Below are positions 40,056-63,778 of a stretch of 64,000 nucleotides of DNA, in pieces. Both the position numbers and the translations under genes were made by a program. This DNA comes from an uncultured Bacteroidia bacterium (GTDB lineage Bacteria; CAIWAD01; BS150m-G50). A model generated the notes under the pieces. The model was not told the DNA's origin. It ran no database searches and saw nothing but the letters and a program-made list of their open reading frames with translations. Location: positions 4,371 to 68,370 of the forward strand of contig CAZFEC010000010.1 of NCBI GenBank assembly GCA_964517435.1. Reading direction: 5' to 3'. Each line of letters opens with the position of its first letter. Positions within the stretch are counted from its first letter, which is position 1.

Positions 40056-40321
40056 GCTCACCTTAGAAAAGATTTCTAGTTAATTTGAATTATGAGGGCA
40101 GCTTCTAACATCCCTCAAATGATCACTGCCGTTGAAGATGAGATTGCTGCTATTCGTAGTAGTAAACGCAGAATAACGCTTTTTTGAAAGAGTGTGCATT
40201 ATTACCCCATACATTAGCAAGCTCATCTAGTTAATTCCTAGCAGACGGTCCTACTGATGATGTCGTCAGGTCAAGGTCCGTTCAATAGATGATGATGCGG
40301 ATTTGAACAAGGTGTGCGTCA

Positions 40322-42331: not shown

Positions 42332-42336
42332 CGCAC

Positions 42337-43056: not shown

Positions 43057-44209
43057 GGCATTATATTCGTTTCAGAATCTGAAGAATACAGCCTTATTCG
43101 TCCAGGATCAACACAGTGTTCTAGGGCAACTCCAGGGGGAGGTTTTAGAGAGTATTCTTGCGCAACTGGTGGAGAAGATTGAGAAATGCGACACATCTAG
43201 TATAACAGCGTTTGCACGCGCACTAACGCGCAAGGAAACAGGACTTCTGCTTCATGTTTTAGTGCAGGATTACTCTTCCGGGCTGATCAGTAAGACATTA
43301 CAAATCATCGACATACGGGCTAAACCACGGCAACTTGCCATAGGTTGGTTTCTATTCAAGAATTATCCTAGCAGTCAACAGCTACGAGAAGGACTAGTCG
43401 CTGTAGCATCCTCGCTGGATCCAAAGCAAATCCGATCATCGAGTGTGTCCGAGAGAGCGTTTCGAATTTTCGGAGCGAGCGATATTGACGAAGCTCTAGT
43501 AGAAGACCTGACACAATCCAATGCTCTGCTTGTAGACTGGCTGTCACAAGATTCACCTTATAAGGATAAATCGCAGGCGGCAAGCATTCCGCTTTACAGG
43601 TGGTTACAGGACATGATACTTGTCAAGGGGAACCGTTATCTTCTTCTTCGCCACGGGATAAACCAAATAGACACATGGTTCTCTGGCTTGCAGGCAAAAC
43701 ATTATCAAAGCGCTTCAGCGAATTACATCAACTCGCTTCAGGAACAGGAATGGCTTGTAAGTAGGATCGAAGAGATTGTATCGCGCTTCGGGTTGCCAGC
43801 TTCCCAAAGCGACTTCTGGCTAAAGGTTGACGTTTCTAAAAAGCAAGCAATCCAGAGGCTTATCGGCCACAGGTTGATTGCGGAGTTTTTTGAAGATGTT
43901 GATGATCCGAATGGAAGGTTCTTCTTCTGGCAAGAGTATGTAGACTATCTTACCGGTGTAGTGTATCCCAGTAGCAGGTCCAGGATACTGCTTAAGTTCA
44001 CCAATTTCCTACTCGTAGAATTCCGTGATATAGGAAATGCGGGTTACATTTATCCTCTAGACGAGCATAGATGGCTTGAAACTGTAGTTGCTGATGATTC
44101 ACGATCGCACCAGGACTGTAAGGATCAATACAGAGCTTCTTACCGGATTATTCACAGTAAGAACTGGCAAAGCAACGTTGAAGATTTCCTTGAATGGCAG
44201 CTCTTATGA
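43034..44209 (+). CDS. zorC: ZorC-like EH-signature-domain protein
   Basis: The C-terminus RFFFWQEY...LLVEFRDIGNAGYIYPLDEHRW...HSKNWQ resembles the EH_Signature domain. The start (TTG 43034 or GTG 43049) overlaps the zorB stop. Confidence 0.7.
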   Translation: MEKSDVTEALYSFQNLKNTALFVQDQHSVLGQLQGEVLESILAQLVEKIEKCDTSSITAFARALTRKETGLLLHVLVQDYSSGLISKTLQIIDIRAKPRQLAIGWFLFKNYPSSQQLREGLVAVASSLDPKQIRSSSVSERAFRIFGASDIDEALVEDLTQSNALLVDWLSQDSPYKDKSQAASIPLYRWLQDMILVKGNRYLLLRHGINQIDTWFSGLQAKHYQSASANYINSLQEQEWLVSRIEEIVSRFGLPASQSDFWLKVDVSKKQAIQRLIGHRLIAEFFEDVDDPNGRFFFWQEYVDYLTGVVYPSSRSRILLKFTNFLLVEFRDIGNAGYIYPLDEHRWLETVVADDSRSHQDCKDQYRASYRIIHSKNWQSNVEDFLEWQLL

Positions 44210-47052: not shown

Positions 47053-47796
47053 CTATTCTACCCCCCCCAGCAGACTAATTTCTAATTCCCCCTTCAACTT
47101 CTTCCACTGCGGCACTTCAGAGGCCAGCAGATCGTAAAACGCGCGACCGTGCTTCCTATGCTTCACATGACACAACTCATGGATAATGACATAGTCAATA
47201 TGCCGTGTCGCGGCCTTGATAAGCTCTTGATTCAGAATCACCCGATAGGTCTTCTGTGAATAGCTCCCCCAGCGCCGGGTCATCTGCTTGACCATCAATC
47301 CAGGCGTCTCCCTGTAGTTGAACTTCGCAACACAAGCCTGCAGCCGTTCGACGAAAACACTGTGCGCTCTTTCCCGGTACCACGCCTCAATAAGTTCTCG
47401 ATTATGTGCAGGTTTCTTCGGCTGGGAGGTGAATACGGTTAGCGTCCCATACTGAAGCGAGACCCGTTCCCTGCTTCTATCATTGCGAATCAGCAACTTG
47501 TAGTTCCGGCCGCGGTATCTGAAGGTTTCGCCACTGACAAATCGCTTCTCAGGACTCTGCTTGAACTGCGCGAAGTAACGCTGCTGTTTCAGCACCCATC
47601 GGAACTTCCGGCGCAGAAAGCAGTCGATGCGTTCGTCTGCCGCTTTCAGTGGCGCCTTCAAGACTACTGTTTGTGAGGGGAGCACAGACACAGCGATGGT
47701 TTTTCTCCCCTCCAACACCAGGTGGTAATCGAAAGAAACTTCCTGGTGAGAGAAATGCCGCTTGACCGAATCTGTGATCCTGAGTTCGTCATTCAT
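47053..47796 (-). CDS. YgjP-like (DUF45/M48-type) metal-dependent hydrolase
   Basis: HELCHVKHRKHG motif. ATG 47796 overlaps the hsdR stop as ATGA. The longer track ORF (to 47955) overlaps hsdR and is rejected. Confidence 0.8.
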   Translation of the reverse strand: MNDELRITDSVKRHFSHQEVSFDYHLVLEGRKTIAVSVLPSQTVVLKAPLKAADERIDCFLRRKFRWVLKQQRYFAQFKQSPEKRFVSGETFRYRGRNYKLLIRNDRSRERVSLQYGTLTVFTSQPKKPAHNRELIEAWYRERAHSVFVERLQACVAKFNYRETPGLMVKQMTRRWGSYSQKTYRVILNQELIKAATRHIDYVIIHELCHVKHRKHGRAFYDLLASEVPQWKKLKGELEISLLGGVE

Positions 47797-50700
47797 TGAG
47801 TCCGGTTCTCCACCCCCAGATTCCAGACCAGCGTAATCATGTTGTCGATTTCGTCTGTGGATAAAGGAATGCTGTACTCGTCCCTGGCGACATCGAAAAG
47901 GTAATCCTCCAACGCCATTCGAACTCGACGCTGCACCTCGATATTCCGGTGCCAATCAACAATCTTGTCTCTCTCTACCAACTTATACATGGCCTGAGCC
48001 ATCTCGCTAAGCTGATCCGGGGTGACGGAATGAGCTTCTAGCTCAGTCTTGAGGTTCCGGTAGAATGGATGGAATTCCTTCCTTTCCTTGATTACTTCAG
48101 GGATATCATCGGCCTCATACCCGCTTACCTGCTGCTGGTACTCCTGTACGAGCATCAGCAGCGCCTTCAGGTCCTCCTGCCGAGCGTCCTTCAGCTCCTC
48201 AATCAGTTTCTTGATCTTGTCACTGAACCGCCTGTAGAATTCCGGATCCCGGTGATAGTTCTCCTTGATTGTCCGTTTTGTCTGAGCAGCAATCGCTTCG
48301 GCCTTCGACCGGTCTGATAGACCACGTTCGGTGCTGGTAATGTATGCATTGAATTCCGTCGGCTCGCTGATCTGCAGCGGCTCGGTCAGCTCTATCACAT
48401 AGTCGGAAGAAACGTGCTTGTCCAGAATGCGGCGGATCTGGTCCTCATACTTCGAGAAATCGATCTCCTCCGCATGCTTGATCTTCTGGATCTTTTTCAG
48501 TTCCACGAATCGCTTGAGGTCACGCTGGTACCTGCGCAGCTTGTCGGCGTCGAACTTCTGCGTGAAGTCGTAGAGCATCTGACAGGTCGCGTACTGTTTC
48601 ATGTATTCATTCACCAGCTCATAGAAATGCTCGCGCGTTTCGACATCCTCCTCCAGAACGCGGACATAGGCTTCGGTGTCCTGCTGGTTCTTCACCGCGG
48701 TGAATATCGCATGCAGCTCCTGGTACACCCGCTCCAGTTCAGCGACCTTCTCGTCTGAATTGAGCAGGGCACGTTCGATGTCCTCGGGATCATAGTTCGA
48801 GAACAGCTGTATTGCGTTATACAGGTTCTGCGCATTCTTCGAATAGTCGATGACAAAACCGTTGACCTTGGCCTCACGGCCTTCGTCGCCATCAAAGAGG
48901 CGGTTCACACGTGCAATAGCCTGCAGCAGGTTATGATCCCTGAGCTGCTTGGCGAGATATAGAAAAGTGTTGCGGGGCGCGTCAAAACCGGTCAGCAGCT
49001 TGTCTACCACGATCAGGATGCGAACACCTTCCGGATTCTCCTTGAAGTCCCTGATCAGGTTCTTCTCCCGCGTTTCCAGTGAGGTTCCATGCCTGTGTTT
49101 CTCCTCGCCGAGCCAGGCGGCTACGATCTTCTTGTGCTCCGGAAGCTTGTCATCCTCCTCTTTGTCCGCCGTATCGGATATGATCACCTCGACTGAAACC
49201 TGCTCCTGCAGATCAAAGGCTTTCTGGAACATCACAGCGGCGTACTTTGAGGGGGCGACGACCTGCGCCTTCAGGCCTGTGCCGAGGAACTGCCGGTAGT
49301 GGTTCAGGATATCCAGCGCTATCGTTTCTATGCGCTGAGAAGTCTCCTCGATTATCTGTGATGAATTGAACTTCTGCTGAAGATCCTGTTTCTGCTGTTC
49401 CGTCAGATCCCGGGTGATCTGATCGTAGAACTGGTCAAGGAGTGCACGTTGAACGCGCTGTTCCACAAACCGGGGCTGATAGATCAACGGCAGAACGACA
49501 CCATCCTGTTCGGCTTCCGATATTGTGTAGGCGTCGATCATCCCGCCGAACTTCTGTTCGCTGGTTTTCTCGCGCTTCATCAGCGGGGTGCCGGTGAAAC
49601 CGATCTGGCACGCCCGCGGCAGGAACAGGTTCAGCTCGATGTTGGCCTTGCCCGCCTGAGAGCGATGCGCCTCGTCGATCAGGATGAAGACGTTCGGATC
49701 GTCGTCCACGAAATCCCGCATTGCACTGGACGCTTCGAACTTGTGAATCAGCGAGGTTATGACCCGCTGGTCTTTCTCCCTGATCAGGCGCAGCAGTTCT
49801 CTGGCACTGCGGGTGCGTTTGACCTCCTTCTTGATATTGCAGGCGGCAAAAGTGTCGCTGATCTGCTTGTCCAGATCGCGCCGGTCGGTGACCACGACAA
49901 CACGCGGCAGCTCAATGTCTGGATCATCGATCAGGCATTTGACCAGCATCACCATCGTCAGGCTCTTCCCGGTACCCTGAGTATGCCAGATTAAACCGCC
50001 CTGGCGCCTGCCCTGTTCGTCGCATGTCTTCAGCCGCCTCAGCGCCTTTTTGATCGCGAAGTACTGCGGGTAGCGCGCGATCTTTTTGATGTTGCTGTCA
50101 TAGAGGATGAAGTTGCGGATCAGGTCCAGTAGGCGCTCCGGGCGGAGCAGGCTGTAGATGCCGCGATCCTGCTCTGTGACTGTTCGCTCCGCAGTCTGTG
50201 TGAAATTCTGACGGATCAGATCGTTCGCGACCTGGGAGACAACAGCCGGATCAACCGGCTGGTTGATGACTGCCGCAACTTCAGCGTCAGATGTCTCGGC
50301 ATCAGCATCCTTCTCCTTCCAGTGGGCATAGAAGCGCGCGGGTGTGAGCATGGTGCCGTATTTCAACTCACGCACATTGGTGGCGATCAGTATCTGCGGG
50401 AAGAGGAAGAACTTCGGCGTTTCGTGCCGGCCCTGGTTGCGCACCATCTGCGCAACCGCGTCATCCACCTTGACAGATTCCTTCTTGTTTTCGATCACCG
50501 CAAAGGGGAATCCGTTAACGAACAGGACGATATCGGGGCGGCGCTCATGTCCTTCCGCAAGCTCGAATTCGGCACAGACGTGGAAGGTGTTGTTTTCCGG
50601 CGATGCGAAGTCGATGAACCTCAGTTGGGGAGATACGCGGCGTCCGTTCACCAGTTCCGAAACAGAGCGGCCGGCGATCAGCAGGGAGTAGATCTCTTCT

Positions 50701-50972
50701 GACGCTCGGTAAGCGCCGTCACCCATCTGGATGCTGTTCTCCGCTTCGAAGATCGCGTCGCGGATGCTCTTGTCGGAAATGCTGTCGCTGTTGATTCTGC
50801 GCAGAGCCTCGAAGGCGATGTCGCGGAGGATGTACTGCGAGGTGTTCTCCCGCATTGCGGTAATTTCGGCACGCGGGATGTATTTATAACCTAGATTCGC
50901 CAGCTCCAGCAGGGCCGGGATCTGGGAGGCGGAGGCCTCGTCGAAATCGGGGAGGTCGAATTCGTGACTCAT
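47793..50972 (-). CDS. hsdR: Type I restriction enzyme R subunit
   Basis: 1059 aa. HTQGTGKSLTM (motif I) and ILIDEAHRSQ (DEAH box). C-terminal helicase region. ATGA overlaps with hsdS and the ygjP-like gene. Confidence 0.9.
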   Translation of the reverse strand: MSHEFDLPDFDEASASQIPALLELANLGYKYIPRAEITAMRENTSQYILRDIAFEALRRINSDSISDKSIRDAIFEAENSIQMGDGAYRASEEIYSLLIAGRSVSELVNGRRVSPQLRFIDFASPENNTFHVCAEFELAEGHERRPDIVLFVNGFPFAVIENKKESVKVDDAVAQMVRNQGRHETPKFFLFPQILIATNVRELKYGTMLTPARFYAHWKEKDADAETSDAEVAAVINQPVDPAVVSQVANDLIRQNFTQTAERTVTEQDRGIYSLLRPERLLDLIRNFILYDSNIKKIARYPQYFAIKKALRRLKTCDEQGRRQGGLIWHTQGTGKSLTMVMLVKCLIDDPDIELPRVVVVTDRRDLDKQISDTFAACNIKKEVKRTRSARELLRLIREKDQRVITSLIHKFEASSAMRDFVDDDPNVFILIDEAHRSQAGKANIELNLFLPRACQIGFTGTPLMKREKTSEQKFGGMIDAYTISEAEQDGVVLPLIYQPRFVEQRVQRALLDQFYDQITRDLTEQQKQDLQQKFNSSQIIEETSQRIETIALDILNHYRQFLGTGLKAQVVAPSKYAAVMFQKAFDLQEQVSVEVIISDTADKEEDDKLPEHKKIVAAWLGEEKHRHGTSLETREKNLIRDFKENPEGVRILIVVDKLLTGFDAPRNTFLYLAKQLRDHNLLQAIARVNRLFDGDEGREAKVNGFVIDYSKNAQNLYNAIQLFSNYDPEDIERALLNSDEKVAELERVYQELHAIFTAVKNQQDTEAYVRVLEEDVETREHFYELVNEYMKQYATCQMLYDFTQKFDADKLRRYQRDLKRFVELKKIQKIKHAEEIDFSKYEDQIRRILDKHVSSDYVIELTEPLQISEPTEFNAYITSTERGLSDRSKAEAIAAQTKRTIKENYHRDPEFYRRFSDKIKKLIEELKDARQEDLKALLMLVQEYQQQVSGYEADDIPEVIKERKEFHPFYRNLKTELEAHSVTPDQLSEMAQAMYKLVERDKIVDWHRNIEVQRRVRMALEDYLFDVARDEYSIPLSTDEIDNMITLVWNLGVENRTQ

Positions 50973-52294
50973 GTTGCATCTCCGCTGTCAGCGGTAGATG
51001 AGGTCTTGTTGACGAATTGAGGCAGGCGGATGGTGCCGGTGACCAGGTTATTGAGGAGGAAGCGTTTTTGGGATTTGAGGGCGGCTAGTTTGGACACAAG
51101 GATTGCTATCTCTTTTTCAAGACAAATGAAAACAGAAGCAATTGCCGACTGTTCCTGCTCTTGTGTTGGAAGCGCCAGCCGATTGGACAGAAATGTCGAA
51201 TTTGTAATGTTGATCGTATTCTTTGCGCCTTTCTGAATGATTGGTCTCAGATAATTGCCCGTATTTATTTTGGATTCGAAGTAGCAGTCGAGTAGTAGTC
51301 CAAGTGATGTGGTGACTGGTGTGAAGACCCCGTAAAGAGGGGATACAATGACACTCTCTGAAAGCCTGCTTTGCTTGATGATACCATATGGGAAATCGCC
51401 CGTAGGGCTCTTTGTATATACTATATCGCCCGGCTTCACGAGATTATACCTTGAAGTGTCTACTGCAGCAAATGATCGCCCCATATGCTCGACCTGGTTT
51501 ACTAATCCTTTGTGCACTGAAACAGAGTACACCGTTTCTCTACCGGAGCTTGTCTCTTTGTGTTCATGGAGAACTTCGCCCAAGCGCACTTCTTTCCATT
51601 CCCTATCAAATCCAGGTAGCCGTTGCTTCCCAGAGAGCAACCTCTGCATCAACCCTTTCTTGATGATTCGCTTCTTTTCGAGCTTTCGCTCATGTTCTCG
51701 AATCGCCTTGTCCCAGCATTCCAGGATTTCGGCTATGGCTTTTTGCTCGGGGAGGGGGGGGAGGGGGATGGGGAGAGCTATGAATTGCTCTCTTGTAAGA
51801 TGTGCGAAGCTGGTCTCTCCGATGAAACCACGTATACGTGGTGTCCGAACTGCTTTATACAAGAAGCTCATGGCAAAGAAAGGGGACACATTTTTCTTTC
51901 TGGGGCGGAGACGATGCAGCGCCTTCTGAAAATAGCATGGACTTATCTCCTCATGCCATATGGCGCATCGACCGATTTCGCCTCCCTCGCAAACAAGAAG
52001 ATCGCCATCTCTCAGCTCAAATTTCTCCTTCTCGCTCTGAGAAAAAGCCATCGTGCGTACGTCTGAAAGGTCAAAGCCTCCCCAACGAACATTGAAATTT
52101 GCTAAGTAGGAACTTTGACCTCTCGCTTCTCTCGCCTTCTTGCTTAGCATCTTTCCAAGCTGAATCTCAAATATATCGCCGAAAGAAGGGCATTCCCATT
52201 CCATGGGAATCCACCCGACTTTCGTCTTCTTGTAGCCTGGCCGATTGTGGTTGTTGAGATTCATTATTCTTCTACTGTGACGAATTTGAATCAT
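50969..52294 (-). CDS. hsdS: Type I R-M specificity subunit (two target-recognition domains)
   Basis: Two TRD-like halves separated by the conserved helix LPPLPEQKAIAEILECWDKAI, ending LPTQEQEQSAIASVF...LKSQKRFLLNNL. Confidence 0.85.
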   Translation of the reverse strand: MIQIRHSRRIMNLNNHNRPGYKKTKVGWIPMEWECPSFGDIFEIQLGKMLSKKAREARGQSSYLANFNVRWGGFDLSDVRTMAFSQSEKEKFELRDGDLLVCEGGEIGRCAIWHEEISPCYFQKALHRLRPRKKNVSPFFAMSFLYKAVRTPRIRGFIGETSFAHLTREQFIALPIPLPPLPEQKAIAEILECWDKAIREHERKLEKKRIIKKGLMQRLLSGKQRLPGFDREWKEVRLGEVLHEHKETSSGRETVYSVSVHKGLVNQVEHMGRSFAAVDTSRYNLVKPGDIVYTKSPTGDFPYGIIKQSRLSESVIVSPLYGVFTPVTTSLGLLLDCYFESKINTGNYLRPIIQKGAKNTINITNSTFLSNRLALPTQEQEQSAIASVFICLEKEIAILVSKLAALKSQKRFLLNNLVTGTIRLPQFVNKTSSTADSGDAT

Positions 52295-53982
52295 CGCCGA
52301 CTTTCATGCTGTTCGCGAATACTTGCGACAACATCATTCAATCTTTTCAATGCGTTAGATGCTTCTTTCTTATCAATCTCGTATTGCACGCGAATTCTAC
52401 CTAGTTCTGCTTGTGGGTTCTTTACCAGAACATGTTTCCGATCACCCCAGACTCTTTCTCCAATTGCTACGATATTGCCACCCTGCCAACCACCTCTTTG
52501 CAGCCATCGAGACGGCCCATTCCTGCGGAATAACTGTAGAAAAACATAGCTTGGGCGTTTCGGCCATGGAATCCCTTTGTCCATAATCCCTGAGCGAGAT
52601 TTAACAAATCGGCGACGGCCTATCTTGGTCAGGTCTGTTAATATGTTCTCGATGAGAACTCGATCCTCACCATCACTTGGATGTGTGAGATGTGCACGAA
52701 CCTCTACCCGTGCAATTCCGCTGACTGACAAGTTTTGAATTCCCAGGATCACATAGCGCCCTTTTGCAGGAAGCAAACCATGACTTTGCCATTCCGTGAG
52801 TAACAACCTCTTCAGCTTCTTCAGGCTAGACTTGAAAACCTTATACCATGCGCGGATTGATGAAATATAACGAGGCTCATTGCACCATAGAAGTTGTGTG
52901 TCCGCAAGAATTTCAGGGAATCGAGTCATCGGTGAATTCTCTTCCAAGAGTTCCTCAAGGATCTTTGGAAGAATGATAACAAGTGAGGGGACTCCTTGGT
53001 CCGAATCAATCTCGAACAGGAATCGGTCGAATCCTGTGGCGCCCTGATTCAGCAACTCCCGCGCTACTCTGCTTGATTCAAGAATGATCTGATTCCTTGA
53101 TTTCGTGTCAACAGCTAGCGCCACATGTAATTGTCGACCCGCGAAGCGGGTGAAGGATTCGATGCCACCGAGAAATCGAAGACCATCACGCGTCACCATT
53201 CCGGCTGTAGCTTTAACAGCAAGTGATAGAGGAGGTTTTTGAGATCGAGGAATAGAATGCTTGTTCCTGAGCCAGAAGAGTTGCAAGGCTAAACATAGGC
53301 AAACGCACGTTCTCGCTAGATCATCAAACAAGTAGAGGAAATCTAACGAGCTTAATTTGTGCGGGTTCGCGGAACCAAATTCGATCTCTAAGCCTGTAAA
53401 TCTGACCTTCCCATGCGCAATAGCATTTCGCGCAAGATCATCATACCCCTCCGTTAATACACTGAGGCCCTGCGATTTGAACATCGAGACAGCATTCTTG
53501 AGAATGAACTTGCCATTTACGTCACCCTTTTTTCGCACGGACCAAATGACAGATGATAAATTCCCAAGCACATGTTCTGTCAAGTATAAGTATTCAGGGA
53601 GAAAGTAGTTTGCTATAGTAAGCAGCTCACGAGCCTGACCATGGCTATATGCATCCTGGAGATCCTTTGTTGGGCTCTCCCGATGTAGATTCTCAATGCC
53701 GAGTTGCAGACTATCAGATCGCCTATCAATGGCTGCAAAGGTTCGGGATAGATCATTCTCCAATAGATCGATGATTCCAGCTACTGTTGATTCATCCCAG
53801 TATGTCAGTGGCGGTGATTCAGTAAAAGGTCGAAGAACGAGAACTTCGCGGCCACATATGTCTTCTGGAATTAAACCAGAAAATCTACTTATGATGCGAT
53901 CGATAGATAGTTCGTGTTCGATTTGAGCAAGAGGATCTGCTCCAATCAAGTCAGAAATCGTCTTGTTGCTCATATCCATCAA
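52291..53982 (-). CDS. Unknown 563-aa protein embedded in the type I R-M operon; contains a HEPN-like RNAIAH motif
   Basis: Long clean ORF whose stop overlaps the hsdS start (ATGA at 52291-52294). The Rx4H motif ARNAIAHG is encoded at 53413-53430. No other motif recognised. Confidence 0.6.
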   Translation of the reverse strand: MMDMSNKTISDLIGADPLAQIEHELSIDRIISRFSGLIPEDICGREVLVLRPFTESPPLTYWDESTVAGIIDLLENDLSRTFAAIDRRSDSLQLGIENLHRESPTKDLQDAYSHGQARELLTIANYFLPEYLYLTEHVLGNLSSVIWSVRKKGDVNGKFILKNAVSMFKSQGLSVLTEGYDDLARNAIAHGKVRFTGLEIEFGSANPHKLSSLDFLYLFDDLARTCVCLCLALQLFWLRNKHSIPRSQKPPLSLAVKATAGMVTRDGLRFLGGIESFTRFAGRQLHVALAVDTKSRNQIILESSRVARELLNQGATGFDRFLFEIDSDQGVPSLVIILPKILEELLEENSPMTRFPEILADTQLLWCNEPRYISSIRAWYKVFKSSLKKLKRLLLTEWQSHGLLPAKGRYVILGIQNLSVSGIARVEVRAHLTHPSDGEDRVLIENILTDLTKIGRRRFVKSRSGIMDKGIPWPKRPSYVFLQLFRRNGPSRWLQRGGWQGGNIVAIGERVWGDRKHVLVKNPQAELGRIRVQYEIDKKEASNALKRLNDVVASIREQHESRR

Positions 53983-54034
53983 TTGCTAGAGTATTGAAAG
54001 ACTTACTCATTGAGTGCTTTCCGTATTATCGGGG

Positions 54035-55087
54035 TCAGTCATTTTGATGTGTGTCCTCACCCCCACCCCTCTTCGCCATATCCTCCAACCGCTTTATCGA
54101 CTCCACCTCACCCAACTGCTCTTTCTGCTTCCTGCGACTGTCGGCAAATTGATCATACTCAGCGCGCGCGTGTGTCTCAGCATCTTCCTTACTGACACTT
54201 CCCGCATGACCCAAAACACGCCTTTCATTGAACGCGAGAAACTCGTCGAGCTTCGTCTCCCAATCCTGCATGAAGACCTGTTTGCGCCGCAGCGCCTGGT
54301 CCTCGGCGAAGTCGAGCCACATTACGACGATGCGGTTCAGCTCGTTGATTTCATTCTCCTGCAGGTAGTTCTTAGCCACGGTGACATCGGTCTTGCGCAC
54401 CTCCTCCTTCTGCCAGGAGGTCAATCCCATGTTAGGCAACTGAGCATTTGCACGTGACTGAATGATCTCGGCTGCAGTCATGCCGGTCGCGGCGAAGTGC
54501 AGCTTGTTCTGCATGACGCTGAAGAACTTGGTGGTCTCCGGCTGAGTGGGTTCATAGTCAGCCGCCATGGCGAAAATCTCGCGAACACGCAGATACATGC
54601 GCCGTTCACTGGCTCTGATGTCCCGGATGCGGGCGAGCATCTCGTCGAAGTAGTCGGGAACCGGCGATCCGGCCACCGGCGGATTCTTGAGCCGCTCATC
54701 GTCAAGCGTGAAACCTTTGACGATGTACTCCTTGAGACGCGCCGTGGCCCAGATCCGGAAACGTGTGGCGATGATGCTCTTAATGCGGTAGCCGACCGAG
54801 ATCACCATGTCCAGGCTATAGTAGTCAAGCCTTCTCTGGACCTGCCTGGTACCCTCCTGGCGAACTGTTAAGAAATCCTTAACAGTTGACTCGGGCGAAA
54901 GCTCCCCCTCCTCGTAGATATTGCGAATGTGTATGTTGATATTTGGAACTGAGGTCTGGAACAGCTCCGCCATCATCTGCTGGGTCAACCAGATCGTTTC
55001 GTTCTCCAGGCGCACGTCTATTTTTACCTGACCGTCATCAGTCTGATAAACCAGCAACTCGCCCTTCTGCGGCAGTTCCTCTCTCAT
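54035..55087 (-). CDS. rhuM: RhuM-family protein
   Basis: The N-terminus LLVYQTDDGQVKIDVRLENETIWLTQQMMAELFQTS...NIHIRNIYEEGEL and VISVGYRIKS...RFRIWAT are as I recall for RhuM-family proteins. ATGA overlap with the hsdM stop. Confidence 0.75.
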   Translation of the reverse strand: MREELPQKGELLVYQTDDGQVKIDVRLENETIWLTQQMMAELFQTSVPNINIHIRNIYEEGELSPESTVKDFLTVRQEGTRQVQRRLDYYSLDMVISVGYRIKSIIATRFRIWATARLKEYIVKGFTLDDERLKNPPVAGSPVPDYFDEMLARIRDIRASERRMYLRVREIFAMAADYEPTQPETTKFFSVMQNKLHFAATGMTAAEIIQSRANAQLPNMGLTSWQKEEVRKTDVTVAKNYLQENEINELNRIVVMWLDFAEDQALRRKQVFMQDWETKLDEFLAFNERRVLGHAGSVSKEDAETHARAEYDQFADSRRKQKEQLGEVESIKRLEDMAKRGGGEDTHQND

Positions 55088-56601
55088 TTGATAATCCCCA
55101 GGTTCTTGAGGTGCTTCGTCATCTCTTTATCCAGTTTCGCAAGCTCCTTGTCGATCTCGGCCATTTCCCTGAGATTAGCTTCGATGTCCACCTCTTCCTC
55201 CTCCTCGAAGGTGTCGACATAGCGGGTGATGTTGAGGTTGAAGTCGTTCTCCTCGATCTCGTCCGGCTGTACAACACGACAGAATTTCTCGATGTCCTTA
55301 CGATCATCAACTGCCTTCAGGATCTGGTTGATATGCTCATCATCCAGGACGTTCTGCGCTTTAACCGGGCGATACAGTTTTGACGCCTCTACGAAGAACA
55401 CATCTTTACGACTCTCGTTCCTACCCCCAGCCTCGCGAGAACGATCGAGCAGAAGAATGGCAACCGGAATGCCAGTTGTCTGAAAAAGCCCCGCCGGCAG
55501 CCCGACGATCGTATCAACCAGATTCTCCCTGAGCAGACTTTGACGGATCCTCCCCTCTGCTGCGCCCCGAAACAGGACGCCATGAGGTACGATAACTACA
55601 ACCCGACCCTCTTTGGCCTTCGCGGTTTCGATCATATGGCTGATGAAGGCGTAATCCCCCTTTGTCTTGGGAGGAATACCGCGGTGGAATCGATTGTAGG
55701 AATCGTTCTCGATGTTGTCACCCGCCCACTTTTTGAGGGAGAAGGGCGGATTAGCGATTACGAGATCGAACTTCATCAGGGCATCCCCCTCCTTCAGAAG
55801 GGGGTTGTTCAACGTGTCGCCCCATTCTAACCGGGCTGAATCCTTGCCGTGGAGGAACATGTTCATACGGGCCAGGTTGTAGGTTGATCCGATACTTTCC
55901 TGGCCGTACAGAGCGTAATCCTTCGAGCCCTGAGCTTCAACTTCAGCGCCCGCCAGCAACAACAAGCCGCCCGCCCCGCAGGCGGGATCACAGATGCGCC
56001 AGCCGGGCTGAGGCTTTGCCAGCTTGGCCAGGAGCCTGGCGATGGAGTGGACAGTAAAGAACTCACCGGCTTTCTTGCCGGCGTCTGAGCCGAAGCGTTC
56101 GATCATATACATGTAGGCGTTGCCGATGACGTCGTCTCCGACAACCGTAAGGTCGATCCTGGCGAAATCATCCATCAGGTGGCGCAGCATCTTATTGCGC
56201 TGATCCGTTTTCCCCAACACGGCATCAGAATTGAAGTCGATGGCAAACAACCCCTCGAGACGGTCTCCGTTTGCATCCTCGATAGCATGCAGCGCGATGT
56301 TAATCAGTTCGCCTATGTTGTCCGCGTTCTTCTTCTTATAGATATCATAGAAACTCGTGCCCTCAGGGATGACAAAGCGCTCATTCTTCAGGCGAAGTGC
56401 GATTCGTTCCCTGTCGTCACCATAGCGCTTGGTAAGCTTCTCGATCTCGTGTTGATGAAGGTCGCTCATGTACTTGTAGAACAGGAACAGCAGGACGTAA
56501 TCCTTATAGATGCTGCCGTCAACATTCATGCGTGACGAGTCAGCTGCTTCCCACAGGGTTCGGTTCAAGGCATCCTGTGTGTATTGTCTTTGCCCGCTCA
56601 T
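55084..56601 (-). CDS. hsdM: Type I R-M DNA methyltransferase subunit
   Basis: N-terminal HsdM_N-like LWEAAD..R. SAM motif DPACGAGGLL. Catalytic VIANPPFS. Confidence 0.9.
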   Translation of the reverse strand: MSGQRQYTQDALNRTLWEAADSSRMNVDGSIYKDYVLLFLFYKYMSDLHQHEIEKLTKRYGDDRERIALRLKNERFVIPEGTSFYDIYKKKNADNIGELINIALHAIEDANGDRLEGLFAIDFNSDAVLGKTDQRNKMLRHLMDDFARIDLTVVGDDVIGNAYMYMIERFGSDAGKKAGEFFTVHSIARLLAKLAKPQPGWRICDPACGAGGLLLLAGAEVEAQGSKDYALYGQESIGSTYNLARMNMFLHGKDSARLEWGDTLNNPLLKEGDALMKFDLVIANPPFSLKKWAGDNIENDSYNRFHRGIPPKTKGDYAFISHMIETAKAKEGRVVVIVPHGVLFRGAAEGRIRQSLLRENLVDTIVGLPAGLFQTTGIPVAILLLDRSREAGGRNESRKDVFFVEASKLYRPVKAQNVLDDEHINQILKAVDDRKDIEKFCRVVQPDEIEENDFNLNITRYVDTFEEEEEVDIEANLREMAEIDKELAKLDKEMTKHLKNLGIIK

Positions 56602-57173
56602 CCTCTTCTCCTTCCGGACGATCTTACACTCAGTTCTTTATCCAGAATCTGACGGTAAAGCTCTTGTTTTCGGTTTGAAAGTGTGGTGTATCTCGTCGCT
56701 GCCTCGTCCAAAGCGATCAGCGTTTTCTGTCGAGCCGTTGAGGGAACCGGTATATCCATGTTCTCGAAATTTGTTAGACTAACAAATGGTATAGTGGTAT
56801 GTTCATAGTAGCGCTGGAAAAGCCGCTGTCCAATTGCGGAGTTGATGTAACCGGCCACGTACTCCGGCAGGACCGATTGATCTTTGATTGTCAATACAAT
56901 GATGGATGACGGCACTATCCATGTTTCTGTGGAAGGGAGGTTGAAGACTGCAGCAGCGAACCGGCCGCGGTTAACGATTAATACTTCCTGAGGCTGCAGC
57001 GGCAGTGCTTTGGATTTGTCTGTACGCAGGGGGGGCTCTTTTCCGAAAGTTATCAAGCCTTCGGGTGTGATGTTCTTAGGCTGTATCAACAGTGCATCGC
57101 CGTCTCGTAAATGCGCTACGCTTTTTCTGAAAGCATATCCCGTTCTTACGTTACCGAAGTCCTTAAATTTCAA
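56598..57173 (-). CDS. Half-size (single-TRD) HsdS-like specificity protein
   Basis: One TRD plus the conserved helix (IPVPSTARQKTLIALDEAATRYTTL). AAGGAG lies 5 nt upstream of TTG 57173. ATGA overlap with the hsdM start at 56598-56601. Confidence 0.7.
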   Translation of the reverse strand: MKFKDFGNVRTGYAFRKSVAHLRDGDALLIQPKNITPEGLITFGKEPPLRTDKSKALPLQPQEVLIVNRGRFAAAVFNLPSTETWIVPSSIIVLTIKDQSVLPEYVAGYINSAIGQRLFQRYYEHTTIPFVSLTNFENMDIPVPSTARQKTLIALDEAATRYTTLSNRKQELYRQILDKELSVRSSGRRRG

Positions 57174-57276
57174 AGCCACTCCTTGTTTATAACAGTAGTA
57201 ACATATTGCCGATTGAAAGTCAAGAGAAAAATGAAATGCAGTAGCTGAATACTGCTTTAGGTAAACATGCTGCCCC

Positions 57277-58497
57277 TTGGCGAGTAAGCTTTCTGCCGAC
57301 ATCCTTCAGCCTCGTCACGCAGTAGCATCACCTTTTACCAACAGAAGGATTCCCAAGCTCAGCATCAGAAAAAAAGGAGTCCCCATTTACCACAACCTAA
57401 TCCTTGGATCGTTATTAGCTGGCGCTATCGGCGACGCCCTTGGCGCTGCGGTCGAATTCATGTCCCTATCTGAAATTCGTAAGAAATTCGGTCCTGCAGG
57501 GATCCAGAACTACAGCCCCGCCTATGGTGGTCTCGGGACCATCACCGACGACACCCAGATGACGCTTTTCACCTTCGAAGGGATGATCCGGGCCCAGTTG
57601 CGCTGGCTGGATCGTGGGATGTGCTCTCCGGAAACCGTCCTGCATTACGCCTACCTGCGCTGGATGGCCACTCAGGGCGTAATCCGCATGGAAAGCCATC
57701 CGATGTCCGAATACCCAGGCTGGCTGGTACAACAGGAAGCTCTCCACCACAAACGAGCACCTGGAAATACCTGTCTGACAGCATTGCTGATGCCAGATCA
57801 GTGCGGAACCATCGAGCAACCGTTGAATCAAAGCAAGGGCTGCGGCGGTGTTATGCGAGTCGCGCCGGTGGGATTTTTCGATGTCGAGGATCCCTTTCAA
57901 CTTGGTTGTGAATGCGCCGCCATCACCCACGGTCATCCCAGTGGTTATCTGAGTGCCGGCTTCCTCGCTGAGCTGATTCAACACCTGCTTCAGGGAAAGC
58001 AGCTCCTGGAATCGATTGAGAGAACCACTCATCGTCTGGCACAAGAGTCGGACCATGATGAGCTGCTTGCGGCAATAAAGCATGCCCTGGAGCTGGTCAA
58101 AACTGCAGAGGGGACACCGGAAGAAGTAGAGAGCTTGGGCGCTGGCTGGGTGGCCGAGGAGGCGCTGGCGATCTCGCTGTTCTGTGCCATCATGGCTGAC
58201 GACATCCGGGAAGGGCTGCTGCTGGCAGTCAACCACAGCGGCGACAGCGACAGTACTGGCGCGATAACCGGAAACATTCTTGGGGCCATTCATGGGGTTG
58301 AAGCGGTTCCCGCCGACCTCCTGGAAGATCTGGAGGTGAAAGAAATCATCTTCGAGATGGTTGATGACTTCTTAACGATCAATAAGGACGTCGCTGGAGA
58401 ACAGAGGACATCAGAAATGGAGAATGAGGAGCTCCATTACTTCGAAGGGGGCTACGGAGTACCGAAGCATTTGATAGAAAAGTATCCACCGAATTAG
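57277..58497 (+). CDS. ADP-ribosylglycohydrolase (ARH/DraG-family) protein; true start probably near 57385
   Basis: LGSLLAGAIGDALGAAVEF, ITDDTQMTLF and NHSGDSDSTGAITGNILGA are the ARH family motifs. AAGGAG at 57374-57379 sits 5 nt before in-frame ATT 57385. Confidence 0.85.
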   Translation: MASKLSADILQPRHAVASPFTNRRIPKLSIRKKGVPIYHNLILGSLLAGAIGDALGAAVEFMSLSEIRKKFGPAGIQNYSPAYGGLGTITDDTQMTLFTFEGMIRAQLRWLDRGMCSPETVLHYAYLRWMATQGVIRMESHPMSEYPGWLVQQEALHHKRAPGNTCLTALLMPDQCGTIEQPLNQSKGCGGVMRVAPVGFFDVEDPFQLGCECAAITHGHPSGYLSAGFLAELIQHLLQGKQLLESIERTTHRLAQESDHDELLAAIKHALELVKTAEGTPEEVESLGAGWVAEEALAISLFCAIMADDIREGLLLAVNHSGDSDSTGAITGNILGAIHGVEAVPADLLEDLEVKEIIFEMVDDFLTINKDVAGEQRTSEMENEELHYFEGGYGVPKHLIEKYPPN

Positions 58498-58512
58498 CTG
58501 ATGAGGGTTGTG

Positions 58513-59325
58513 ATGAAAGGCAGGGCAAAAAGCTGGCGAGATGTCTTTGAGCGTCTGGATCGATGGAGAAATCTACCCAAGTATCAGCTCGAACGGAGAG
58601 CTGATATATTCTTCTCATTGTATCTGATCGAGATCATGCAGGCCGTGATCGGAAAGAGAAATCAGCGATTCCTAAACCTGATGATTCCGGAGTTTCCACT
58701 TCTTAAACAGGGTGGTCCAAAGAGTAAATCAGGAAAGAAACGCCATCTGTCTAATAATGTCGATTATCTGATGTTTTCGAAACCGCTGGGCAAGAACCGA
58801 GAACCCAGAAAAATATGGCTGGCAGAGCTTAAGACAGATCTGGAATCAATTAAAGCTCAGCAAATTGAGTATCTTCACAACGCTGTTGAGCGGGGTTTCA
58901 GCGAATGCATTAGAGGTCTCTTGGAAATTGCGCGGAGGACAAAAAGCCGTCAGAAATACTATCATCTTCTACATACGCTTATAACCACGGGTATTGTCAA
59001 TGTTGCATCCGATTACCAGTCGAGCATTACCCGGAATCCTGCTCGTAGTGCCAGCATCGAAACCGACTCGAGCTATGATGAGCTCGTAGACAGAATCATA
59101 CTCGCTCCGGAGTGGTCAAAAGCTGAAGCAGAAATCGTTTTTATAACTCCAAACGAGGTTGAGATTCAGAGCAAGAAACGCGGAGTAGCGATTCACAATA
59201 TAACGTTCAGTCAGATCACAAACTTCTTAATGAAGCAGAAAGGCGAACTTCCACGTGTGTTCGCAAAGTCTCTCAACCGTTGGGCCGAACACAAAGCCGG
59301 CTTCGATGTATCAAAACTGGATTGA
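58513..59325 (+). CDS. Hypothetical protein with PD-(D/E)xK-like nuclease motif set
   Basis: The E..D..ExK pattern QLERRADIFF / NVDYLMFS / IWLAELKTD. Starts 4-16 nt after the ARH stop (ATG 58501 or 58513). Confidence 0.5.
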   Translation: MKGRAKSWRDVFERLDRWRNLPKYQLERRADIFFSLYLIEIMQAVIGKRNQRFLNLMIPEFPLLKQGGPKSKSGKKRHLSNNVDYLMFSKPLGKNREPRKIWLAELKTDLESIKAQQIEYLHNAVERGFSECIRGLLEIARRTKSRQKYYHLLHTLITTGIVNVASDYQSSITRNPARSASIETDSSYDELVDRIILAPEWSKAEAEIVFITPNEVEIQSKKRGVAIHNITFSQITNFLMKQKGELPRVFAKSLNRWAEHKAGFDVSKLD

Positions 59326-59351
59326 GCATTATTCCTGGGATGTAACCGACC

Positions 59352-60887
59352 ATGTCTAACCCTCGCCTTTCCAAATCCCGCCTTCTCTATCTACGACAAT
59401 GCCCGCTGCGCCTGTGGCACGAGATCCATAATCGCGAGTCCGCTAATCCACTTGACGAAGCAACTCAGCACCGTTTTTCAGAAGGTACCCGGATCGGCGA
59501 GCTGGCGCAGCAGCGTTATCCCGGTGGTGTGCTAGTTGACGCACCATACTGGGACAGCGCCAATGCCCAGCAGCACACATCCGCCCTCCTTCAATCCGAT
59601 GTCCCTACAATCTACGAGGCCGCCTTCGAGGCTTCACGCACCCGGATCAGGGTGGACATCATGCTGCGCAAGGGTTCCGGCAGTTGGGAGGTCTGGGAAG
59701 TCAAAGCGGTCGGCACACCGAAGGAGATCCACTTCATCGATCTGGCCCTGCAGATCAGGATTATCAGAGAGTGGTCAGACGAAAGCAACTTGCCCCTGCG
59801 AATCTCCCGCTGTGGTATCCTCCATCTAAATACCGCATACACGTATAATGGTGAAGATTACGACCTGGCTGCGCTTTTCCAGGAGCATGATTGCACGGAT
59901 ATGATCAGCGAGTATGGCGATGAAGTGGAGGAGCTCATCCAGGCCGGACGGTCATTACTGGACAGCAACGATCCTCCAGAGACGGAACCGGGGACACATT
60001 GCTCGGATCCTTACCTGTGCCCCTTTTCCGGCAGTCTTTGTGAACTGCCGCCCATCGATGAACTCTGCCTGCTTCCCGGTGTCGGTCAGAAGACAGCCCA
60101 GAGACTCCGTGCAAAGGGTGTCGACACCATCGCAGAAGCTATTCAGCAACCGCAGATCTTCAACGGACTCCAACAACGGGCGCTCCGCTCTCTGCAATTG
60201 GGAAAGCCGGTTATAGAGACGGGGTTGGATACAGTCTTGAAAGAGATCGGCTTCCCCCGGCACTACCTTGATTTTGAGTCAACCGGAAGTATGTTGGTAT
60301 TACCACGCTATGCACAGACGCATCCGTTTCAGGCGCTTCCATTTCAGTTTTCGCTGCACACCGAACACGAACCCGGCGGTAAACTGACTCATCAGGGCTA
60401 CCTTCATTCGTCAGACGATGATCCGCGAGAACCTCTTACCGAGAAACTGCTGAACGCTTTGGAATCCACGCCTGGAAGGATTGTCGTCTACTCAAGTTAT
60501 GAGAAGACAGTGCTGAACGCGCTGAAGCGATATCTGCCACAATATGCAGACCGCCTGGAGGCGGTTATTGAACGGCTGGTGGATCTGTTGCCGGTAGTAA
60601 AGTCTTATGTCTACCACCCCGACTTCAAAGGCAGTTTCTCGATCAAGGATGTTCTCCCAGCGCTGGTCCCGGGCGAAGGTTACGGCGAGCTGGCGATTCA
60701 GGATGGAGATACGGCGTCGTTGCGTTACCTGCAGATGCTCGGAGTAATAACTGCGGGCGAACAGGATAAAGACATACACAGCTCGGAAGCCAACGCTGAG
60801 TCAATCCACACCTCCCTCTGGGAATACTGCCGTCAGGATACACTGGCAATGGTCGATCTGGTGCATATGTTAGAAACAGGGCGCTGA
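59352..60887 (+). CDS. DUF2779-like protein: Cas4/RecB-type FeS nuclease domain plus DEDDy-type exonuclease-like domain
   Basis: N-terminal SKSRLLYLRQCPLRLW. RVDIML...WEVWEVKA (D..ExK). Cys trio CSDPYLCPFSGSLC. Then YLDFEST and C-terminal YCRQD. Confidence 0.7.
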   Translation: MSNPRLSKSRLLYLRQCPLRLWHEIHNRESANPLDEATQHRFSEGTRIGELAQQRYPGGVLVDAPYWDSANAQQHTSALLQSDVPTIYEAAFEASRTRIRVDIMLRKGSGSWEVWEVKAVGTPKEIHFIDLALQIRIIREWSDESNLPLRISRCGILHLNTAYTYNGEDYDLAALFQEHDCTDMISEYGDEVEELIQAGRSLLDSNDPPETEPGTHCSDPYLCPFSGSLCELPPIDELCLLPGVGQKTAQRLRAKGVDTIAEAIQQPQIFNGLQQRALRSLQLGKPVIETGLDTVLKEIGFPRHYLDFESTGSMLVLPRYAQTHPFQALPFQFSLHTEHEPGGKLTHQGYLHSSDDDPREPLTEKLLNALESTPGRIVVYSSYEKTVLNALKRYLPQYADRLEAVIERLVDLLPVVKSYVYHPDFKGSFSIKDVLPALVPGEGYGELAIQDGDTASLRYLQMLGVITAGEQDKDIHSSEANAESIHTSLWEYCRQDTLAMVDLVHMLETGR

Positions 60888-62272: not shown

Positions 62273-63778
62273 ATGAAAACAAACCGCATCTTTATCAGCA
62301 GCGTACAGGAAGAGTTTGCCACTGAACGGGCGGCCCTGCGGGATTATATCCGCAACGATCCCCTGTTGCGCAGATTCTTTGATGCGTTTCTTTTCGAGGA
62401 TGTACCGGCTGCGGATCGCAGACTCGATGATTTGTACCTGAATGAAGTTGAACGCAGTCAGATCTACCTTGGGCTCTTCGGCAAAGAATATGGCTATGAA
62501 GACCAGGAGGGGATATCACCGACACAGCGCGAGTTTGAGAAAGCAACAGAACTCAACAAGCATCGTTTGATTTTCATCAAGGCATTGGAGAATATACCGC
62601 GACACCCTAAAATGCAGGCGCTCATCCAGCAGATTGAGACGCAGTTGATTCGTCGCCGTTTCAACACAACGGCTGAATTAATCTCAGCCCTATATGCCTC
62701 TCTGGTCAAGTACCTGGACGATCGTGAACTGATTCGTTCCACCCCTTTTGACGCGACAGCCTGCAGCGACGCGACATTGGAAGATCTTTCCGCAGAAACT
62801 ATCGCCGGTTTCGTTCGGGACGCGCGTGAAGCTCGTGGATTTCCACTCCGCGAACAAGCAACACCCGCCGAGGTCTTGACGCATTTAAATCTTCTTGATA
62901 AGGATCGCCCCACTCACGCTGCTATACTGCTCTTCGCCAGAGAACCTCAACGATTTCTAATTTCGTCAGAGATCAAATGTGCTCACTTTCATGGCTGTGA
63001 AGCGACAAAACCTATCCCATCTTATCAGGTCTACAAGGGCAATGCCTTCGAACTGGTTGATCAGGCTGTGGATTTCGTAATGTCCAAGATCAACCTTGCG
63101 ATCGGTACGCGCGAGACCAGCGTCCAAGTCCCGGTTGAGTATGAGATTCCACGCGAAGTTGTCGCCGAAGCTATCGTCAACGCAGTAGCACATCGCGATT
63201 ACACCAGTAACGGCAGTGTTCAAGTTATGCTGTTCGCCGATCGGTTGGAAATTTGGAATCCCGGCACTCTGCCTCCCACCTTGACACTGGAGATGCTTCG
63301 CGGCCCGCATGGCTCCATTCCAGCCAATCCTTTGTTAGCTGAACCCTTGTATCTCACGAAATACATTGAGAGAATGGGCACTGGAACCAGAGATATGATT
63401 TCACGGTGCAGCGCAGCTGGTTTGCCAGAACCGGAATTTGCACTTGCAGACGGATTCACAGTCATCCTCTCGCGCAGAGTTGCGACAGATCAACCGAGCA
63501 CTGTCCCCGACCGGCAGACTGAGACTAAGTCGGGACTAAGTCGGGACCAAGTAATGGTGATGGATAAGTGCAGGAAAGCCAGTGCGTTGCTTGAACTTAT
63601 GGCCCTGTCAGGTCGTAGTAATAGAACCAAGTTCAGGGACCAAGTACTCAGACCGTTGATTGAGGCGGGTTTGGTTGAAATGACCGTTCCTGGCAAGCCT
63701 CGCAGCAGTAATCAGAAGTATCGCATTACTGAGGCGGGACTCAAGGCGCTGAAAAACGACCAGGACGGAAAGGGATAG
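62273..63778 (+). CDS. DUF4062-like N-terminal domain fused to HATPase_c_4-type (RecG-like/Schlafen-associated) DNA-binding regulator domain and C-terminal wHTH
   Basis: N-terminus IFISSVQEEFATERAALRDYI...GISPTQREFEKA...RLIFIK (DUF4062 pattern). EAIVNAVAHRDY...DRLEIWNPG...IERMGTGTRDM (HATPase_c_4 pattern). Confidence 0.7.
   Translation: MKTNRIFISSVQEEFATERAALRDYIRNDPLLRRFFDAFLFEDVPAADRRLDDLYLNEVERSQIYLGLFGKEYGYEDQEGISPTQREFEKATELNKHRLIFIKALENIPRHPKMQALIQQIETQLIRRRFNTTAELISALYASLVKYLDDRELIRSTPFDATACSDATLEDLSAETIAGFVRDAREARGFPLREQATPAEVLTHLNLLDKDRPTHAAILLFAREPQRFLISSEIKCAHFHGCEATKPIPSYQVYKGNAFELVDQAVDFVMSKINLAIGTRETSVQVPVEYEIPREVVAEAIVNAVAHRDYTSNGSVQVMLFADRLEIWNPGTLPPTLTLEMLRGPHGSIPANPLLAEPLYLTKYIERMGTGTRDMISRCSAAGLPEPEFALADGFTVILSRRVATDQPSTVPDRQTETKSGLSRDQVMVMDKCRKASALLELMALSGRSNRTKFRDQVLRPLIEAGLVEMTVPGKPRSSNQKYRITEAGLKALKNDQDGKG

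Follow-up and report, generated by a model that had tools for sequence, protein, structure and literature searches.

An ADP-ribosylglycohydrolase and nuclease gene cassette in a defence island of an uncultured Bacteroidia bacterium

We analysed a three-gene cassette in a 64,000-nucleotide stretch of contig CAZFEC010000010.1 (assembly GCA_964517435.1, positions 4,371 to 68,370), from an uncultured Bacteroidia bacterium; this whole stretch is referred to here as the window. The cassette encodes an ADP-ribosylglycohydrolase (ARH, also ARG), a 270-amino-acid (aa) middle protein of an unnamed, PD-(D/E)xK-like family (MID) and a 511-aa protein of the DUF2779 family. The domain identities of the proteins are established, catalytic motifs are intact in all three, the cassette is conserved in a second genome, and pairs of its genes are recurrently linked. 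We read the three genes as a compact, horizontally transferable cassette, built on a core of ARH and DUF2779 with a third nuclease added. It is quite possibly, in our tentative judgement that falls somewhat short of probable, a nuclease-rich variant of the predicted "ARG-centric" conflict systems, acting in the manner proposed below against ADP-ribosylation by invaders.

All three open reading frames (ORFs) lie on the + strand (57277-58497, 58501/58513-59325 and 59352-60887). A preliminary description of this DNA, prepared without database searches, had placed them there and called them an ARH, a nuclease-like protein and a DUF2779 protein, assignments that stand after Pfam searches, alignments and structural modelling. 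It had also given gene spacings of 4-16 and 27 nucleotides (nt); the tight packing is real, with the exact gaps corrected to 15 nt between ARH and MID and 26 nt between MID and DUF2779. Upstream, 82 nt separate ARH from the half-size hsdS gene of a type I restriction-modification (R-M) operon on the - strand, and this divergent intergenic region (57303..57384) is presumed from the gene arrangement to hold the promoters for both. A scan for consensus promoters and terminators gave counts at chance level, with nothing above chance in 57303..57384, so the operon status of the cassette rests on spacing and strand.

Recurrence of the cassette and of its core

The preliminary description had staked its idea of a module on the three genes co-occurring in other genomes. 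ARH, MID and DUF2779 are indeed found in the same order, beside McrBC, on a contig (L082) of one unrelated metagenomic genome. The L082 proteins are 77% (ARH), 59% (MID) and 66% (DUF2779) identical to those of the window, and its MID and DUF2779 are the closest relatives of the window proteins. A single blastn alignment joins window positions 57376-60875 to L082 positions 8860-12365, with 68.4% identity over 3,538 columns. The edges of this shared 3.5-kb block are sharp, and nothing outside the three genes is common to the window and L082, where the block is preceded on the same strand by genes for N6_N4-MTase, DUF5131, UvrD, McrB and McrC. The presence of a shared block with unrelated flanks in two defence neighbourhoods indicates that it moved as a cassette between them. 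The trio is nevertheless rare and is not a widespread fixed unit: of the module first envisaged, the part that recurs is ARH with DUF2779, whereas no ARH was adjacent to MID in 80 genome loci.

ARH and DUF2779 genes are linked, in varying order, in 7 loci (the window, L082, L089, L091, L192, L141 and L147). The nearest ARH relatives with usable contigs, at 50-77% identity, come from L082, L191, L089, L192 and L091; four of these five loci carry DUF2779 and four carry a nuclease of the metallo-beta-lactamase (MBL) fold. Their arrangements, with anonymous proteins given by length in aa, are MBL-93-DUF2779-267-ARH in L089 (ARH 54% identical), McrB-McrC-ARH-312-220-123-MBL-DUF2779-MoxR in L091 (50%), ARH-231-336-MBL-DUF2779-WYL-AAA in L192 (53%) and ARH-310-MBL in L191 (56%). 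The MBL-fold protein (Lactamase_B_2 plus RMMBL, ~431-438 aa) is orthologous in L089, L091, L191 and L192 and in these loci always travels with this ARH clade.

ARH, MBL and DUF2779 are orthologous across the nearest-relative loci, while the orphan proteins between them (93-336 aa) have no detectable homology to one another and no match in Pfam or PADLOC. Nor is MID a homologue of these in-between proteins: hmmsearch and phmmer found no relationship to those of L089 (267 aa), L091 (312, 220 and 123 aa), L192 (231 and 336 aa), L191 (310 aa) or L090 (312 aa). Since ARH and DUF2779 are orthologous across loci in which the in-between proteins are unrelated, they form the conserved core. As judged from these comparisons, MID is one predicted third part beside that core, and the MBL nuclease with its orphan proteins is the alternative.

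The association also appears when DUF2779 is taken as the starting point. Among 11 loci with near-clade DUF2779 (44% identity or more), the window excluded, this ARH is found in 3, against a single weak match in 80 control (MID) loci (Fisher p = 0.005). More distantly, DUF2779 is followed in L141 by a fusion of a phosphatase (PTP) with an ARG, and L147 carries DUF2779, ARPP-1 and a PTP-ARG fusion; the ARG part of these two fusions is 42-44% identical to the window ARH. DUF2779 also adjoins ARPP-1 in L153, and a REase-ARP gene (PF22558) directly follows near-clade DUF2779 in L094. ARPP-1 and REase-ARP are Pfam families named after their association with ARG and rhodanese-phosphatase.

These linkages bear on the idea that the three genes are independent hitch-hikers in a defence island, with the L082 block recording one transfer event rather than joint function. 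The exact trio is found in two lineages only, each family occurs mostly without the others, and the promoter and terminator scan, at chance level, gives no direct evidence of co-transcription. Against this, the ARH-DUF2779 linkage persists in 7 loci at an ARH identity of ~50%, where the gene order is permuted and the genes are tightly spaced or overlap, MID is linked to DUF2779 in 12 of 80 loci across phyla, and the edges of the homologous block coincide exactly with the three genes. We regard hitch-hiking as distinctly improbable.

The three proteins and their families

The longest ARH ORF runs from TTG 57277 to 58497 (406 aa) and gives a full-length match to PF03747 (ADP_ribosyl_GH) at aa 44-346 (E 6.1e-75; 253 bits against a cut-off of 26.2), covering profile positions 1-286 of 287. 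Its translation contains GDALG, DDTQMT and DSDSTGAITG, all identical in the 77%-identical L082 homologue. From the structures of DraG and ARH3, we take GDALG...E, DDT and DSDST to be the binuclear-metal and catalytic motifs. The nearest solved structures are DraG 2woc (E 6e-19) and MJ1187. The protein is neither a DraG nor a Tri1 ortholog, since its NCBIfam scores fall far under the equivalog cut-offs (91.5 against 337 for TIGR02662, DraG; 51.3 against 490 for NF041672, Tri1). Several phosphatase-fused ARH homologues (P0236, P0241, P0253, P0271 and P0285), which carry PTP/DSP domains, are 53-57% identical to it.

The start of the ARH gene requires revision. The preliminary description began it at TTG 57277, and public gene calls use either that codon (406 aa) or ATG 57460 (345 aa). 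The comparison with L082 indicates that the start is most likely the rare codon ATT 57385: homology to L082 begins at 57376, the ATG of the homologue aligns with this ATT, and a Shine-Dalgarno-like AAAGGAG (57373..57379, + strand), read directly from the sequence, precedes it by 5 nt. L082 has the same GGAG-N4/5-start layout, with ATG as the start codon there. The ARH gene is thus probably 57385..58497 (+ strand, 370 aa). A start at ATG 57460 would lose the conserved GDALG segment; the conserved NLILGSLLAGAIGDALG segment is located upstream of that codon.

The DUF2779 gene (59352-60887, + strand, 511 aa) encodes three parts: an N-terminal Cas4/EXO5-like Fe-S PD-(D/E)xK nuclease domain (59352..60047, aa 1 to ~232), a helix-hairpin-helix (HhH) DNA-binding motif (60054..60137, aa 235-262) and a C-terminal RNase H-like DEDDy exonuclease domain (60249..60887, aa ~300-511), all on the + strand. 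PF11074 (DUF2779) matches aa 304-430 (E 4e-35; 121 bits against a cut-off of 23.3), the Pfam families RecR_HhH, HHH and HHH_5 match aa 235-253, and PADLOC gives a weak Cas4 match (E 2e-5). The Fe-S and nuclease residues C17, C217-x5-C223-x6-C230, D102, E116 and K118 are conserved, and the DEDDy set (D307, E309, D411, Y492 and D496) is invariant in 60 DUF2779 sequences. The structural model has a pLDDT of 95.8, and Foldseek matches it to Cas4 4r5q (E 3.6e-4), the Cas4-Cas1 complex 7mi4, 4ic1, AdnAB, human EXO5 and the Argonaute-associated Cas4-like ACE1, with further matches of the HhH part to DNA polymerase mu and weak ones of the C-terminal part to RNase HI. Residues and model together place a Cas4-like Fe-S PD-(D/E)xK nuclease fold at the N-terminus, and with the conserved DEDDy residues they bear out the dual-nuclease interpretation offered initially. 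In its four-Cys cluster, D...ExK site and fold, the N-terminus resembles solo Cas4, EXO5 and AddB/AdnAB. A CRISPR-associated Cas4 role was rejected, since the window contains no CRISPR array and the eight neighbours scanned include no cas gene. Assignment to the TM0106 RecB-like nuclease family (TIGR03491) was rejected as well (score 31.2 against a cut-off of 97.45).

Within the RNase H-like superfamily, PF11074 has been assigned to the clade of 3'-5' exonucleases, and its fusion with a DUF83/Cas4-like domain has been noted (PMC3985635); the COG2251/TM0106 fusions of RecB-like and RNase H-like domains combine the same two parts (PMC3985635). DUF2779 is functionally uncharacterised, and one member is quasi-essential in JCVI-syn3.0 (PMC13621843). 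The family has more than 3,400 homologues. The preliminary description had called for a survey of DUF2779 neighbourhoods for recurrent partners and defence genes, and the outcome is divided. Near-clade DUF2779 lies in defence-rich, rearranged settings, whereas among 80 metagenomic DUF2779 loci at 32-46% identity, MID is present in 2 (L113 and L154), ARH is present in 2 (L141 and L147), and ~16 show conserved housekeeping synteny (MatE, valS, tadA, cobB). In that last group (L117-L157), a divergent MatE gene stands upstream, and then come genes for ketopantoate reductase, a HAD hydrolase and a CobB sirtuin, valS, a phosphopantetheinyl transferase gene and tadA. From this conserved synteny, DUF2779 appears to be inherited vertically and to have a role outside defence in the L117-L157 lineage.

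The MID reading frame is open from 58501, with the start placed at ATG 58513 (58513..59325, + strand, 270 aa). MID has no match in Pfam, NCBIfam, PADLOC or PDB sequences, and no solved structure was found by sequence for either MID or DUF2779. In a 37-sequence alignment, W18, P22, Y24, L26, E27, R28, R29, D31, P59, E60, P62, D84, E105, K107, T108, S112, Q117, K148 and Y149 are invariant. The AlphaFold model (pLDDT 88) has an alpha-beta-beta-beta-alpha core, on which E27, D84, E105-x-K107 and Q117 map to helix H26-45, strand E80-91, strand E100-106 and helix H115-127. Counted along the fold, these are the first helix, the second and third strands and the helix after them, which is the canonical PD-(D/E)xK layout. 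Foldseek found no significant match in the PDB (best McrC, E 0.098; TM-scores ~0.25), and most of the top non-significant matches are PD-(D/E)xK nucleases (McrC, Card1, Dna2, PfoI, AddB and MspJI). From the model and these residues we describe MID as nuclease-like, with PD-(D/E)xK topology and motifs, which agrees with the motifs first noticed in the middle protein (E/D/ExK). Identification of MID with REase-ARP (PF22558) or PDDEXK_13 was rejected: there was no Pfam match at E 0.01, and an hhalign comparison of the MID profile with the REase-ARP protein of L094 gave a probability of 0.2%.

The representative genomes of 185,579 species contain 119 occurrences of MID, and the MID profile matched 1,893 representative clusters among 1.84 billion. 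The sole recurrent neighbour of MID is a DUF2779 or Cas4-like gene, which lies beside it in 12 of 80 loci; both orders occur, and the loci belong to different phyla. In L004, L008, L009 and L058 this partner matches just the N-terminal Cas4-like part of DUF2779 (up to ~230 aa). MID is sometimes duplicated in tandem, as MID-Cas4-like-MID-DUF2779 in L009 (6297-10306) and MID-DUF2779-MID in L069 (6797-9842). With none adjacent in the 80 loci, ARH was rejected as a general MID partner. The other neighbours of MID are R-M, integrase and WYL genes and many housekeeping genes.

Searches of 2.9 million viral contigs and 72,556 plasmids returned no MID; DUF2779 was rare, occurring in 14 viral loci and 33 plasmids, none of them above 34% identity. 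A phage or plasmid origin was rejected on these counts, and both are taken as host-side genes.

Such distributions raise the question of whether the cassette serves DNA repair or DNA-end processing. In that case DUF2779, with MID or MBL, would resect or excise damaged DNA, ARH would remove ADP-ribose adducts from DNA or repair proteins, and the cassette would lie in variable regions merely because it is accessory and mobile. The housekeeping synteny of DUF2779 in ~16 of 80 loci is in keeping with this idea, as are its quasi-essential member in a minimal Mycoplasma genome, its fold relatives among the repair nucleases AdnAB and EXO5, the many housekeeping genes near MID, and the reported partnership of an ARH-fold antitoxin, DarG3, with the DNA-modifying DarT (PMC13069673). 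However, near-clade DUF2779 and the ARH clade consistently occupy defence-rich, rearranged neighbourhoods; the in-between proteins are non-homologous and turn over rapidly, as is typical of conflict systems; and the cassette is patchy and rare, with MID so sparsely distributed among species. We consider a repair module somewhat unlikely.

The surrounding defence island

The cassette was originally described as divergent from an R-M operon inside a defence island, and the island is borne out. Type I R-M genes, with an embedded RhuM/PDC-S05 gene, occupy 47793-57302 on the - strand. Further upstream lie a Mrr-like/PDC-S02 gene (39066-40055) and then a complete type I Zorya system (40322-46980), comprising ZorA (40322-42331), ZorB (42337-43056), ZorC (43034-44209) and ZorD (44194-46980). 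The G+C content of the window is lowest, ~44-46%, across the Mrr-like and Zorya region (39066-46980), and the cassette itself lies in a low-G+C stretch (~45-53%, against ~60% elsewhere in the window). No tRNA gene was found in the window, and a tRNA was accordingly rejected as an island boundary.

In order of transcription, the R-M layout (47053-57302, - strand) is a half-size hsdS (234 aa), hsdM, the RhuM/PDC-S05 gene, a gene for a 563-aa protein with no match in any library, a full hsdS and hsdR, after which comes a YgjP-like metallopeptidase gene whose longest ORF overlaps the end of hsdR. The hsdS allele differs in other assemblies of the R-M locus (431 aa, compared with 442 aa). Downstream of the cassette are a TPR protein and a DUF4062/HATPase_c_4 protein. 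The latter (62273-63778; 501 aa; DUF4062 + HATPase_c_4 + Fic-like_C) matches PADLOC pAgo-associated SIR2-PNTD models (E 8e-14), and the gene after it on a longer contig (L085) encodes an AAA_16-TPR STAND-like protein. The two may constitute a further defence gene pair.

Taken together, the defence genes around the window cassette and the near-clade DUF2779 loci include Zorya, type I R-M, Mrr, McrBC, GmrSD, SIR2-HerA, type ISP and WYL genes. Near-clade DUF2779 stands beside type ISP and PLD-helicase genes in L090. In L092 it forms WYL...DUF2779-GmrSD-Nmad2 with SIR2-HerA upstream; in L174, WYL...DUF2779, a TPR protein and GmrSD-Nmad2 with hsdR upstream; and in L175, WYL...DUF2779 and a GmrSD_N protein with a WHD-AAA ATPase upstream. 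The WYL...DUF2779-GmrSD arrangement is recurrent (L092, L174 and L175, and also L094 and L173), and a WHD-AAA ATPase is located near the WYL-DUF2779 pair of L173. In two independent loci the gene immediately downstream of McrC is ARH; the two genes overlap by 4 nt in L091 (2063-4539) and are 18 nt apart in L082 (7632-9983). The N-terminal domains of McrB differ between L091 (EVE) and L082 (DUF8425/8426).

Adjacency of this kind could mean that the cassette is an accessory to McrBC or type I R-M, degrading restriction fragments or keeping the enzymes and their target DNA free of phage ADP-ribose. Besides the position of ARH after McrC in L091 and L082, the window ARH and a type I R-M operon diverge across 82 nt, and co-directional arrangements are found in L057 (DUF2779-MID-hsdM-hsdS-hsdR) and L077 (MID-hsdM-hsdS-hsdR). 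However, ARH and DUF2779 are linked in L089, L192, L141 and L147 with no adjacent McrBC or type I genes in the sequence examined, adjacency to defence genes is expected in islands anyway, and the R-M partners vary in type. An accessory role appears improbable to us.

Relation to known systems and proposed function

No system of this composition is included in PADLOC-DB 2.0.0, in which ARH and MID have no match and DUF2779 only a weak one to Cas4. The initial view that no named system combines these genes therefore holds for PADLOC, but it overlooked a predicted class of ARH-centred systems that lack an ADP-ribosyltransferase (ART) and carry nuclease effectors (PMC9503650). These "ARG-centric" host conflict systems were predicted to counter phage ADP-ribosylation (Iyer et al. 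2022, Viruses 14:1977, section 3.8; PMC9503650). They comprise an ARG core, usually a rhodanese/PTP phosphatase, a Nudix or WYL regulator, chaperones, ARPP and variable restriction endonuclease (REase) effectors; a phosphatase is present in ~55% of them and a Nudix or WYL regulator in ~42% (PMC9503650).

The cassette resembles this class in several respects. As had been noticed at the outset, no ART partner is evident: among the eight genes surrounding the cassette, searches of Pfam, NCBIfam and PADLOC found neither an ART nor a sirtuin domain. The window ARH belongs to the same clade as the phosphatase-coupled ARGs (53-57% identity), and it is tightly followed by the REase-like MID and the Cas4-like domain of DUF2779. 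Like the predicted systems, the cassette family combines a conserved core with accessory genes that vary and are quickly replaced. The relative L192 has a WYL regulator, and elsewhere DUF2779 adjoins ARPP-1 and REase-ARP.

Other systems with related enzymes differ more. In DarHTG, the ARH-like-fold antitoxin DarG3 partners DarT, an ART that modifies DNA (PMC13069673). The cassette shares with DarTG and DarHTG an ADP-ribose-removing hydrolase encoded in a defence context, whereas it has no helicase and, by PADLOC and Pfam, no DarT or other ART, and the partners of its hydrolase are nucleases. The window ARH belongs to the same superfamily as the hydrolases of DraG/DraT and Tre1/Tri1. In those pairs the ARH enzymes reverse arginine ADP-ribosylation; the window ARH, unlike them, has no nitrogenase context, type VI secretion context or transferase partner.

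A toxin-antitoxin or abortive-infection module, in which one or both nucleases would be toxic and restrained by ARH or released on infection, would be in line with the intact catalytic motifs and with the frequent use of nuclease effectors in abortive-infection systems. We judge it highly improbable, as there is no ART toxin and no known antitoxin fold, PADLOC finds no DarT, DarG or other toxin-antitoxin match in the cassette or its neighbours, and genes for free-standing toxins would hardly be solitary as often as DUF2779 and MID are.

Our tentative preference is thus for a nuclease-rich ARG-centric system, which could work as follows. An ART, encoded by an invader or competitor or acting as a toxin, would mark host macromolecules, either protein or DNA/RNA, and ARH would strip the ADP-ribose. 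MID would act on nucleic acid as an endonuclease. DUF2779 would do so as well, its Cas4/EXO5-like domain working 5'-3', its DEDDy exonuclease 3'-5' and its HhH serving as a DNA clamp. The nucleases would excise or resect irreversibly ADP-ribosylated DNA, or would degrade invader DNA as a second line. For the cassette itself, we infer the substrate, the order of these events and any anti-phage phenotype.

A number of observations weigh against this assignment. The window cassette has no phosphatase, Nudix/WYL regulator, chaperone or ARPP, and DUF2779, MID and the MBL nuclease are not named in the main text of PMC9503650. The ARG-centric class is itself a computational prediction, for which our literature search found no experimental validation; nor did that search find a paper linking DUF2779 with ARH, or any paper when ADP-ribosylglycohydrolase, Cas4 and phage were combined. 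Besides the restriction of the exact trio to two lineages, ~85% of MID genes are without ARH or DUF2779 partners, most DUF2779 genes stand without ARH, MID or related partners, and MID neighbourhoods are only modestly enriched for R-M or mobile genes. The neighbourhood ORFs were taken as the longest non-overlapping ORFs, which is a crude form of gene calling. Finally, the housekeeping synteny of DUF2779 in about a fifth of the metagenomic loci surveyed must be set beside the quasi-essentiality of one DUF2779 gene in JCVI-syn3.0, which argues for a general DNA-processing role, perhaps just borrowed by defence islands.

A broader proposal is that ARH-DUF2779 cassettes, with MID or MBL as the third enzyme, represent an undescribed family of anti-phage or anti-toxin immunity that acts on ADP-ribosylated nucleic acid. 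ARH would recognise or strip ADP-ribose on DNA, and the nucleases would excise the host lesion or destroy marked invader DNA. We think this unlikely. ADP-ribosylation of host proteins, DNA and RNA is widely used by phages and bacterial toxins. To our knowledge, no host system that counters ADP-ribose marks made by invaders has been shown experimentally, such systems being known by computational prediction only (PMC9503650). If the immunity-family proposal were true, these cassettes would provide the first demonstrated case of a host system that counters invader-driven ADP-ribosylation.

The cassette is small, with three enzymes in 3.5 kb and their catalytic motifs intact, and it is self-contained enough to have moved as a block, so that it should be directly clonable and testable. 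It would provide a first functional handle on DUF2779, a family with thousands of members, and on the unnamed MID family. Even if its function proves to be ordinary repair, a role would still be assigned to both the DUF2779 and MID families.

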